DNA of 13,339 bases, taken from the IMG/VR virus record IMGVR_UViG_2711768040_000006; one strand, 5' to 3'. A model generated the notes under the pieces. It worked only from the letters and a program-made list of their open reading frames with translations. It was not told the DNA's origin and made no database searches. Both the position numbers and the translations under genes were made by a program. Positions within the stretch are counted from its first letter, which is position 1. Each line of letters starts with the position of its first letter. This document shows positions 1 through 8,829 of this stretch, piece by piece. Origin of the DNA: a virus. Its lineage: Duplodnaviria > Heunggongvirae > Uroviricota > Caudoviricetes.

Positions 1-258
1 ACACAAAATAAAGAACACAAATACAGAAAACAACAACACAATAAAAACAAGAGAACACAAGCTATAAATATTACACCAATAGAGAACACTAATCAAGAAC
101 ATATCAGCACATAATTTCCCATTATACGCGCGTATAATGGGAAATTATGTGCTGATATGTTCTTGATTAGTGTTCTCTATTGGTGTAATATTTATAGCTT
201 GTGTTCTCTTGTTTTTATTGTGTTGTTGTTTTCTGTATTTGTGTTCTTTATTTTGTGT
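1..258. repeat. Perfect palindrome (at least 258 bp, centre between 129 and 130); telRL-like protelomerase resolution site or hairpin-telomere fold-back
   Basis: Bases 1-129 are the exact reverse complement of 130-258, checked base by base. The window starts exactly at the mirror position, so the palindrome may extend further upstream. Confidence 0.85.
102..157. other. telO-like 56-bp core palindrome (TATCAGCAC...CCCATTATACGCGCGTATAATGGG...GTGCTGATA)
   Basis: Same length, same CGCGCG-centred core and same TATCAGCAC/GTGCTGATA outer arms as the N15 telO site as I recall it; inner arms differ slightly. Recollection only, not an alignment. Confidence 0.6.
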
Positions 259-487
259 GAATTATTATTGTTGTTTTACGATCTTTGATTGTGTTCTTTT
301 GTTGGTGAGGATTAGGAGAATAAATAGAGGAAACGTATCTCATTGATGATTTTCATCATGTTTCACTAGTTTTATACGATTTCCTTTCTTTTAAAAAATC
401 CTTTATTATCAATTTGTTATGATCTTGCCGTTGTTTTTTTTTGCATTTAAGGGATAAAACAAAAGATGATTTTGTTCAAATCTTCGT

Positions 488-586
488 CTTTGCCTTTTTT
501 GTTTTACTTTGCTTTTTCTATGTCAATTTGCTAGAAATATGCAAAGCAATAATTATTAAGCAAAGTTATAAGCTGGAGATGACAGT
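488..586 (+). promoter_or_regulatory. sopAB promoter/operator with four CTTTGC boxes (about 488-493 and 507-512 direct; 541-546 and 560-565 inverted) and a GGAG ribosome-binding site at about 574-577
   Basis: CTTTGC hexamers are the SopA autoregulatory motif in the F sopAB promoter. Here there are two direct and two inverted copies, each pair 19 bp apart, immediately upstream of the sopA ATG at 587. Exact -35/-10 not assigned. Confidence 0.5.
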
Positions 587-1756
587 ATGTCTTTGAAAAA
601 GTTATTACAAGATTGTGTTACGCGCGGTCAAGAAATGACCCAAGCAATTGCTATAGCTCAATTCGGTGATGATAGTCCTGAAGCTCGGCGTATCACGCGT
701 AGATGGGGGATAACTGAAGTAGCAGATTTAATTGGTGTAACTCCTCAAGCAATAAGAGATGCTGAGAAGAACGGGCGTTTACCTGCACCTGACTTTGAAA
801 TGAGAGGAAGAGTTGAACGTCGTGCCGGTTATACCATAGATCAAATCAATAGTATGCGAGCTGTTTTTGGCAACCCAAACCAACGGCCACAAGATAAAAA
901 CCCAGTTGTGCTTGCTGTTATGTCACACAAAGGCGGAGTTTATAAAACATCGTCTGCAGTACATCAGGCACAATGGCTAGCATTACAAGGTCATCGTGTT
1001 CTTTTAGTTGAAGGTAACGATCCTCAGGGAACAGCCTCCATGTATCACGGTTATGTACCTGATTTACATATACATGCCGAGGATACTTTACTGCCATTTT
1101 ACTTGGGCGAACGCGATAACGCTGAATATGCTATAAAACCAACATGCTGGCCTGGACTGGACATTATTCCTAGCTGCCTAGCTTTACACCGTATAGAAAC
1201 AGATCTCATGCAATATCATGCTCAGGGTAAATTGCCTCACCCTCCTCACCTGATGCTACGCGCAGCTATAGAATCAGTTTGGGATAACTACGATGTTATC
1301 GTTATAGATAGTGCTCCAAACCTCGGTACAGGAACCATTAACGTTGTTTGCGCAGCTGACGTTATCGTTGTTGCTACCCCTGCAGAATTATTTGATTACG
1401 CCTCTGTTCTACAGTTTTTCACAATGCTTCTCGATCTCCTAGAAAGCGTTGACCTAGGCGGATTTGAGCCGACCGTTCGCTTGCTTCTGACTAAATATAG
1501 TCTCACTACAGGAAATCAATCACGATGGATGGAAGAGCAAATAAGAAATACATGGGGATCAATGGTATTACGTCAGGTTGTACGCGTTACCGATGAAGTA
1601 GGTAAAGGTCAGATAAAAATGCGAACAGTATTTGAACAAGCGGCAAACCAGCGTTCAACACTTAATGCATGGAGAAATGCCGTCTCTATATGGGACCCTG
1701 TTTGTCGAGAAATTTTTGATGATCTAATAAAACCTCGCTGGGAGAACGAAGAATGA
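587..1756 (+). CDS. sopA: Partition ATPase SopA (ParA, type Ia, with N-terminal HTH extension)
   Basis: 389-aa ORF with deviant Walker A KGGVYKTS; extensive similarity to F-plasmid SopA as I recall it (AIAIAQF..DDSPEAR..ITRRW, VLLVEGNDPQGTASMYHG, KPTCWPGLDIIPSCLALHRIE). ATG at 587 with upstream GGAG. Confidence 0.93.
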   Translation: MSLKKLLQDCVTRGQEMTQAIAIAQFGDDSPEARRITRRWGITEVADLIGVTPQAIRDAEKNGRLPAPDFEMRGRVERRAGYTIDQINSMRAVFGNPNQRPQDKNPVVLAVMSHKGGVYKTSSAVHQAQWLALQGHRVLLVEGNDPQGTASMYHGYVPDLHIHAEDTLLPFYLGERDNAEYAIKPTCWPGLDIIPSCLALHRIETDLMQYHAQGKLPHPPHLMLRAAIESVWDNYDVIVIDSAPNLGTGTINVVCAADVIVVATPAELFDYASVLQFFTMLLDLLESVDLGGFEPTVRLLLTKYSLTTGNQSRWMEEQIRNTWGSMVLRQVVRVTDEVGKGQIKMRTVFEQAANQRSTLNAWRNAVSIWDPVCREIFDDLIKPRWENEE

Positions 1757-8229: not shown

Positions 8230-8829
8230 TCAGAATTTATAACCGACACCCACGATGAAACCGTCAGTGCGCCAGTCACCACTGCCGGAGCCTTCATAAG
8301 CAATATCAATGGCCACGGATTCGGTCGGGTTAAACTGCACGCCAGCTCCCCACGCCAGAGACGTGTTGCTGTGGCGATCATCATCACTTCCGGTCAGCAC
8401 ATCGTGCGTTTTCCCCTTGTTGTCAGTTACGCGGAGATAATCCCCGGAGAACGTCGACACCCGGCTGTAAGCCACACCTGCCATCGCATAAGCACTGAAC
8501 CATTCATTCACGCGTACAGATGGCCCCGCCATCATGCTGAACCAGCGGTTACGCACGGAATCTTCATGCCAGCGGGTATCGCTGTAATGCGTTTTTTGCT
8601 CATCTTTGGCATTGGCATAACTGAATGACGTCACCAGCCCCAGCGTGTCCGTAAATTCATAACGGTATTTCACGTTAATGCCCTTCAGGTCATCACTGCC
8701 TGGCATATCAGTATGGGTCTGAAGATACCCGGCGCTTAGTGTGGACTGATGCTCTGCTGCGCTCGCTGGCGTACCAGCGGCAACCAGCCAGACTACTGCG
8801 GACAGAATAACAGCACATAATTTACGCAT
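8230..8829 (-). CDS. lom: Lom outer-membrane protein (Ail/Lom/PagC beta-barrel family)
   Basis: 199-aa ORF with signal peptide (MRKLCAVILSAVVWLVAAGTPASA) and a C-terminal ...GVGYKF aromatic beta-barrel terminus. Position between J and stf is as in lambda. Confidence 0.9.
   Translation of the reverse strand: MRKLCAVILSAVVWLVAAGTPASAAEHQSTLSAGYLQTHTDMPGSDDLKGINVKYRYEFTDTLGLVTSFSYANAKDEQKTHYSDTRWHEDSVRNRWFSMMAGPSVRVNEWFSAYAMAGVAYSRVSTFSGDYLRVTDNKGKTHDVLTGSDDDRHSNTSLAWGAGVQFNPTESVAIDIAYEGSGSGDWRTDGFIVGVGYKF

Follow-up and report, generated by a model that had tools for sequence, protein, structure and literature searches.

Introduction

The closest described counterpart of the locus studied here is the telomere of the linear phage-plasmid N15. 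The natural target of its protelomerase TelN spans ~310 bp and, in the account given in PMC12624138, surrounds the 56-bp telRL site with L1, L2, R1 and R2, degenerate copies of the L3 and R3 repeats; the region is the telomerase occupancy site (tos) of Deneke et al. 2000 and 2002, as summarised in the same source. [quoted passage not shown] TelN remains on the hairpin ends and shields them from Mre11-Rad50, and deletion of its C-terminal domains does not abolish this protection (PMC12624138). That the flanking repeats recruit extra TelN by way of CTD1, or support looping, was offered as speculation in this 2025 study (PMC12624138). Cloning primers for the N15 'tos'/telRL bracket -170 to +195 (PMC2847241), and the N15 GenBank records annotate no repeats outside the 56-bp site. 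In Yersinia PY54/P840, the pal site, too, is a palindrome targeted by a protelomerase and has additional repeats beside it (PMC10612081). There, a flanking 15-bp/10-bp inverted repeat is suspected to aid processing in vivo and is dispensable in P840 (PMC10612081).

Here we analyse the corresponding region in a stretch of 13,339 nucleotides from a Caudoviricetes virus (IMG/VR record IMGVR_UViG_2711768040_000006), which we call the window. A sequence-only reading of the window had pointed to iterated GTGTTCT(C/T)T motifs on both sides of a telO core and likened them to the N15 tos. The feature appears to be one already described in N15; what is new is its occurrence in an N15 relative, together with a comparative map of telomere arms.

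Results

Comparison with public sequences places the start of the window at a known type of telomere. The first 258 bp form a palindrome whose arms, 1-129 and 130-258, are complementary at 129/129 bases with a 0-nt spacer and a centre at 129/130 (Table 1). The exact 22-mer telO at this centre was found in 37 viral contigs, and N15 telRL aligns with the window core over 61 bp at 90%. The R3 repeat of N15, ATTGTGTGCTGATA, sits at offset +15 to +28, as does its counterpart in the window. Among public sequences, the closest come from E. coli linear phage-plasmids of the N15 type; one of them is phage PhiR46_1, whose record stops at window position 119 with its last 22 nt annotated as 'telR site'. 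Beyond sopB, the opposite strand carries lambda-like tail genes. The protelomerase gene lies outside the window; OY754439.1, which is 100% identical to window 103-600, encodes a 631-aa TelN homologue beside telL, across telRL from sopA, and this protein is 77% identical to N15 TelN. From the telO identity, the PhiR46_1 end and the N15-like relatives we therefore take the window to start at the hairpin telomere next to sopA (telR) in a linear N15-like phage-plasmid from E. coli. The identical telO and the SopA and protelomerase identities also bear out the earlier description of a tos-like array flanking an N15-type telO beside sopA.

Table 1. Features at the telomere end of the window (positions count from the first base of the window, offsets from the palindrome centre at 129/130)
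Feature	Position	Strand	Offset	Remarks
Fold-back copy of 130-258	1-129	.		telR arm as read past the hairpin tip, or telRR replication-junction form
Mirror images 10-18, 50-58, 81-89 plus AGAACA 96-101	10-101	-		Same motifs as on the + strand, met on the hairpin's return strand
telO, 22-bp palindrome CCATTATACGCGCGTATAATGG	119-140	.		Identical to N15 telO; tip/resolution centre between 129 and 130
R3-type outer repeat of 56-bp site, ATTATGTGCTGATA	144-157	+	+15 to +28	Mirror at 102-115
TGTTCT	158-163	+	+29	Abuts 56-bp site; missed by the sequence-only reading
GTGTTCTCT copy	170-178	+	+42	GTGTTCTYT match; 13 bp from the +29 copy
GTGTTCTCT copy, TTGTGTTCT type	201-209	+	+73	GTGTTCTYT match
ATTGTGTTG	217-225	+		TTGTGTT heptamer without CT extension; missed by the sequence-only reading
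GTGTTCTTT copy	241-249	+	+113	GTGTTCTYT match
GTGTTCTTT copy in GATTGTGTTCTTTTG	291-299	+	+163	GTGTTCTYT match
SopA-operator-like hexamers	CTTTGC 488-493, 507-512; GCAAAG 541-546, 560-565			Two direct and two inverted, upstream of the sopA start at 587
sopA	587-1756			Product 93% identical to N15 SopA
sopB	1753-2742

The left half of the palindrome is the right half read around the hairpin. Taken by itself, the window with its perfect 129-nt arms might suggest a genuine extended resolution site carrying symmetric L and R arrays and one extra R copy, an interpretation to which we give next to no credence given the records that contain this sequence. NZ_CP101203.1 is 100% identical to window 1-700 and was deposited as a 14,498-bp 'circular plasmid', yet it matches its own reverse complement with 0 mismatches over all 14,498 bp, with sopA, sopB and the tail-fibre genes mirrored. 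The same strain also has a 46,173-bp element that ends 47 nt before the hairpin tip. Records that contain window 1-102 are all off-size (11-92 kb), or are the E. coli 'chromosome' NZ_CP025707.1, whereas records of 45-49 kb match from 103 only or begin at 154, 177, 236 or 239. A match from 103 is best read as the circularly permuted telRL junction form, and the starts at 154, 177, 236 and 239 as truncated linear ends. In nine more loci fetched by the telO pattern the left and right arms are identical, and the palindrome of the window ends at 258 because the window starts at 1.

Given the full palindromy of NZ_CP101203.1, the split by record size and the nine loci with identical arms, window 1-129 is 130-258 read around the hairpin or, equivalently, a transient telRR junction, with no independent telL arm. 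For the element before replication, an extended site is refuted; once replicated, it does pass transiently through such a telRR junction. The mirror copies at 10, 50 and 81 are indeed present, as the sequence-only reading had reported, but they fail as left-arm, L-side repeats and are not independent observations, because 1-129 is the same DNA as 130-258. Similarly, the position of the 291-299 copy beyond the palindrome, which had been taken as evidence of an asymmetric array, is an effect of the window edge. More generally, the off-size mirrored records of N15-like elements are hairpin fold-back assemblies deposited as circular plasmids.

The repeats on the sopA side are present in far greater numbers than expected. 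GTGTTCTYT has 8 matches in the window against 0.17 expected, and 0/200 dinucleotide shuffles attained 8. These comprise the four plus-strand copies, found exactly where the sequence-only reading had placed them and with its spacings of 31, 40 and 50 bp, the three mirror copies and one match inside sopA (996-1004). Independent 9-mer copies within the array thus number 4, or 5 counting the hexamer TGTTCT. The array begins at the first base past the 28-bp half-site, and its copies span +29 to +171. Because the stretch 156-330 is T-rich (54% T, just 11 C), we added a local test based on 5000 dinucleotide shuffles of this stretch alone. For TGTTCT the stretch holds 5 copies where the shuffles average 0.63, for GTGTTCT 4 copies where they average 0.15, and 0/5000 shuffles attained either count. 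In the 47.4-kb genome of a 100%-identical relative, GTGTTCTYT occurs 5 times, 4/5 of them within the telomere array, and the repeat array is restricted to the telomere region genome-wide.

Polarity, number and position of the repeats are maintained across related telomeres. Our comparison drew on plasmid, phage and IMG/VR records, which yielded 64 distinct telomere arms. All 22 distinct N15-like sopA-side arms (22/22) carry 4-6 outward TGTTCY copies and 0 inward copies, compared with a genome background of ~0.12 per equal length, and in 20/22 a copy stands at +29, the remaining two having degenerate variants there. TGTTCY offsets are +29, +61, +103, +116 and +151 in the N15 clade; +29, +42, +60, +113, +150 and +163 in a group of E. 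coli and E. albertii relatives that is 79% identical to the window (group B); and +29, +42, +73, +113 and +163 in the window lineage. The sequence-only reading had named a lack of conservation in homologous telomere regions as grounds for refutation, and this refutation fails: N15 and 20 other distinct sopA-side arms do share the outward TGTTCY offsets.

Individual copies nevertheless turn over between these lineages. The +42 copy is kept in most group-B relatives and is missing from the N15 clade proper. The +113 copy is kept at +112 to +114 in group B, with N15-clade copies at +103 and +116, and the +163 copy is kept at +163/+164 in group B, with an N15-clade copy at +151. The +73 copy is specific to the window lineage; group B reads TGCGTACT there and has a copy at +60 instead, a difference that we interpret as motif turnover. 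Overall, the copies at +60 and +150 have been lost from the window lineage and one at +73 has been gained, but the number per arm stays at 4-6. Pairs of TGTTCY spaced by 13 bp recur at -50/-37, +29/+42, +103/+116 and +150/+163.

Motif columns are also better conserved than the spacers between them. Between +29 and +200, group-B sequences agree with the window at an identity of 0.93 for TGTTCT columns vs 0.70 for other columns (P = 2e-20 Fisher's exact test; P = 0.003 per-column Mann-Whitney test); across 8 arms of the N15 clade, the majority base makes up a fraction of 0.98 in motif columns vs 0.75 elsewhere (P = 4e-9). It is conceivable that the copies have no function and arose when a T-rich subtelomeric spacer of low complexity underwent local duplication or slippage, as the base composition of 156-330 and the turnover of copies between lineages might suggest. 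We consider this very unlikely: composition-matched shuffles never attained the observed counts, two independent clades show motif columns much better conserved than spacers, and outward polarity in every sopA-side arm is accompanied by number and offsets that are kept despite spacer divergence. Since motif columns exceed spacers in conservation, and offsets and number are kept despite turnover, the array is genuine and under selection, with the behaviour typical of a binding-site array.

The genuine telN side differs from the mirrored arm of the window. At telRL junctions of OY754439.1 and others, palindromy extends to ~±27 only, after which the telN-side flank differs; this left flank departs from the window at position 103 leftwards and has an arrangement of its own. 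Counted outward, the telL arm has two inward-pointing TGTTCY copies at +32 and +45 and outward copies at +73, +97 and +141. The distal copies mirror the polarity of the R side, whereas the two proximal copies have the opposite polarity, with the result that four TGTTCY copies (the proximal pairs, of equal polarity) flank the palindrome of the telRL junction as direct repeats. The tos region is thus asymmetric for reasons that are invisible in the window. A further, conserved element, GTGTTACGAT / GTGTTATGAT, precedes the protelomerase start codon by ~35 nt in those N15-like and phiKO2-like phages that we examined (in the extracted loci, at 2368-2380 in L001 and at ~2685-2700 in the N15 locus, L002). 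It is possibly an autoregulatory or 5'-UTR element of telN.

The repeats resemble part of R3, and the strength of this resemblance varies with the copy. TTGTGTK is common to the repeat copies and R3. We initially considered a Hamming scan with the 14-nt R3 at >=9/14, which was too unspecific (~300 matches per genome), and heptamer counts were used instead. Outward TTGTGTT occurs 1.6-2.6 times per 172-nt arm in both arms of the N15 and phiKO2 clades and almost never inward; against a genome background of 0.011, outward copies are ~200-fold enriched in all telomere arms. The sopA-side copies of the window match the 14-nt R3 at 8-10/14 positions (Hamming), a level met ~300 times in a 47-kb genome, and the best of them is the 291-299 copy at 10/14 to N15 R3. 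Because this full 14-mer match is not above background, the R3 resemblance of the window copies rests on the TTGTGTK core, and the +29 and +42 copies are without the TTG prefix. Closer matches are found elsewhere: the telL copy ATTGTGTTCTGTTA matches N15 R3 at 12/14, the phiKO2-clade repeat ATTGTGTTATGAT matches R3 at 11/13 positions as read from the sequences, and in the relative pZ1323 the R3 position itself reads TGTTCCGTTG, resembling the accessory motif.

Two observations concern R3 itself. In group-B relatives (L004-L008), R3 at +15 to +28 is degenerate (ATTATGTTTCGTTA) while L3 is canonical; for this reason the group-B telRL is markedly asymmetric, with a telR hairpin that bears the weaker outer repeat. 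Separately, ATTATGTGCTGTTA at 8808-8821 (-) matches R3 at 13/14 and is the sole such extra-telomeric match in the 47-kb genome (~0.015 expected). It is probably a coincidence, because it falls inside the signal-peptide codons of a lom/ail-like ORF (8230-8829, -).

Although the array shares the layout of the N15 tos, it differs from it in detail. Both have an identical telO with R3 at an equal offset, are flanked by sopA to the R and telN to the L, and carry outward TGTTCY / TTGTGTTCT copies within ~170 bp of the core. The position of the +29 copy is identical, N15 copies at +103, +116 and +151 correspond to those at +113 and +163 in the window, and by our mapping the span of the motif array is that of the N15 tos fragment bracketed by primers (-170 to +195, PMC2847241). 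In contrast, the spacers are essentially unalignable, the window lineage has +42 and +73 and is without +61, its proximal sites read TGTTCT rather than the TGTTCC of N15, and its TelN is only 77% identical. The array appears to be the counterpart, in an N15 relative, of the already described tos accessory repeats of R1/R2 type and in that sense is largely ordinary; we infer the equivalence with published R1/R2 coordinates from a secondary description (PMC12624138) and our own mapping.

More distant systems share progressively less. Klebsiella phiKO2 telRL, the target of TelK, has the same core, the same overall architecture and outward R3-like repeats on both arms. Beside L3 it has one inverted copy, and a GTGTTAYGAT element precedes its protelomerase gene. 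However, its accessory repeat at equivalent places is ATTGTGTTATGAT as opposed to TTGTGTTCT in the window lineage, and TGTTCY is not enriched (0.1-0.7 outward copies per arm). Compared by description, the Yersinia PY54/P840 pal differs further: it has a single flanking inverted-repeat pair of other sequence and no multi-copy directional array.

The location of the array also raises the question of a part in plasmid partition. Lying in the 457-bp gap between telomere and sopA, the repeats might be centromere-like sites for SopB or part of the sopAB promoter/operator, which we regard as highly improbable. Motifs of this family occur on the telN side too, which is devoid of sop genes, and the array ends ~290 bp upstream of the sopA ATG. 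The CTTTGC/GCAAAG boxes, which we take to be akin to the SopA operator of the F plasmid, form a separate cluster at 488-565 that is conserved in N15 and phiKO2. The repeats match neither these boxes nor sopC-type palindromes, and a search with an F-type sopC palindrome pattern found none in the window or the genome. Moreover, a known N15 centromere site lies within repA (PMC2847241). The SopA operator/promoter region is crossed, in PhiR46_1 (323-478, window ~441-596), by an annotated 51-aa 'hypothetical protein', probably a spurious ORF call.

Discussion

We judge it somewhat probable that the TTGTGTTCTYT / TGTTCT copies at 158-299 are this lineage's form of the N15 tos accessory repeats of R1/R2 type, degenerate and outward-oriented relatives of R3, with TelN binding and an occupancy or protection function. 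Under this model, extra TelN molecules would bind weak R3-like sites, each resembling the outer repeat of a half-site but without the cleavage core, and TelN would be concentrated on ~170 bp of subtelomeric DNA. The payoff could be efficient capture of replicated telRR/telLL junctions for resolution, a protective nucleoprotein cap that guards the hairpin against SbcCD (Mre11-Rad50), or both.

Several observations sit uneasily with a simple version of the TelN model. The sequence-only reading had held that such repeats help TelN to bind, a claim that goes beyond what is established even for N15: the 56-bp core is sufficient for processing (PMC3540006), the C-terminal domains are dispensable for hairpin protection, and a role for the flanking repeats has only been speculated (PMC12624138). 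The direct-repeat layout of the proximal copies is unlike the two-fold symmetry expected for a TelN dimer. Furthermore, TelN and TelK hardly vary across residues ~340-530, although their accessory motifs end in different 3' halves (CT vs ATGAT). In an alignment of N15 TelN, window-lineage TelN and TelK, the catalytic and CTD1 regions are near-invariant, and a search for protein-DNA covariation found no clear correlate of CT vs ATGAT. The TTG-less 13-bp pairs, the sufficiency of the core and the absent covariation thus keep a second binder or a second recognition mode in play. We also considered phased bending and rejected it, as the spacings (13, 18, 31-32, 35, 37, 40, 42, 50 and 53 bp) are inconsistent multiples of 10.5.

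One alternative is that some other protein, and not TelN, binds the TGTTCY copies, or at least the TTG-less ones at +29, +42 and +61 and the inward telL pair. Such a protein, encoded by the phage-plasmid or a host factor, would recognise 13-bp-spaced direct repeats and might organise or regulate the subtelomere, for example through telN expression or as a barrier to transcription into the hairpin. This would fit the recurrence of exact 13-bp pairs, the ill match between proximal direct repeats in the telRL junction and the two-fold symmetry of a TelN dimer, and the presence of GTGTTACGAT ~35 nt upstream of telN in all clades. It would also fit the restriction of the hexamer to the N15 clade, with GTTAYGAT in Klebsiella phages, though the DNA-binding regions of TelN and TelK are nearly invariant. 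Nonetheless, we think it unlikely, if worth serious attention: our analysis turned up no candidate for such a protein, the copies of TTGTGTT type bear a clear resemblance to R3, the known TelN-bound repeat, and published work regards the flanking repeats as derived from L3/R3 (PMC12624138). In addition, promoter and terminator scans around both arms found nothing above shuffled expectation, except the telomere palindrome itself, which scored as a 'terminator'.

A joint reading, which we hold to be rather doubtful and draw partly by analogy with shelterin/Rap1, is that the outward TGTTCY/TTGTGTT arrays on both arms might be the platform of a dedicated subtelomeric nucleoprotein cap. Here, a separate DNA-binding module of TelN or another phage-plasmid protein would read the class of 13-bp-spaced direct repeats, and the last ~170 bp would be looped or compacted, hiding the hairpin from SbcCD. 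The same-polarity proximal pairs that flank telRL could then distinguish L and R ends.

Tyrosine recombinases offer a more general parallel to TelN accessory sites. In lambda attP, for example, non-cleaved arm-type sites flank the cleaved core and build a higher-order complex. The window would share with attP its auxiliary, non-cleaved repeats around the core site of a tyrosine-recombinase-like enzyme. It differs in that its accessory repeats are similar to a portion of the core itself, and we do not claim membership of the same class.

The comparative map supplies targets for mutagenesis aimed at the role of repeats flanking the 56-bp protelomerase site. These are the copy number, which is kept while positions turn over; the outward polarity; the TTGTGTT heptamer common to the clades; and the 13-bp-spaced TGTTCY of the N15 clade. 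The mirrored, off-size N15-like 'plasmids' in databases also mean that palindromes at the edges of such records are not to be read as biology. A case from the opposite telomere is phage YDC107_1 (CP025712.1), in which protelomerase genes lie on both sides of a telomere core at ~36716-36769, a telLL fold-back, and the mirrored arm carries fragmented 'protelomerase domain protein' annotations.
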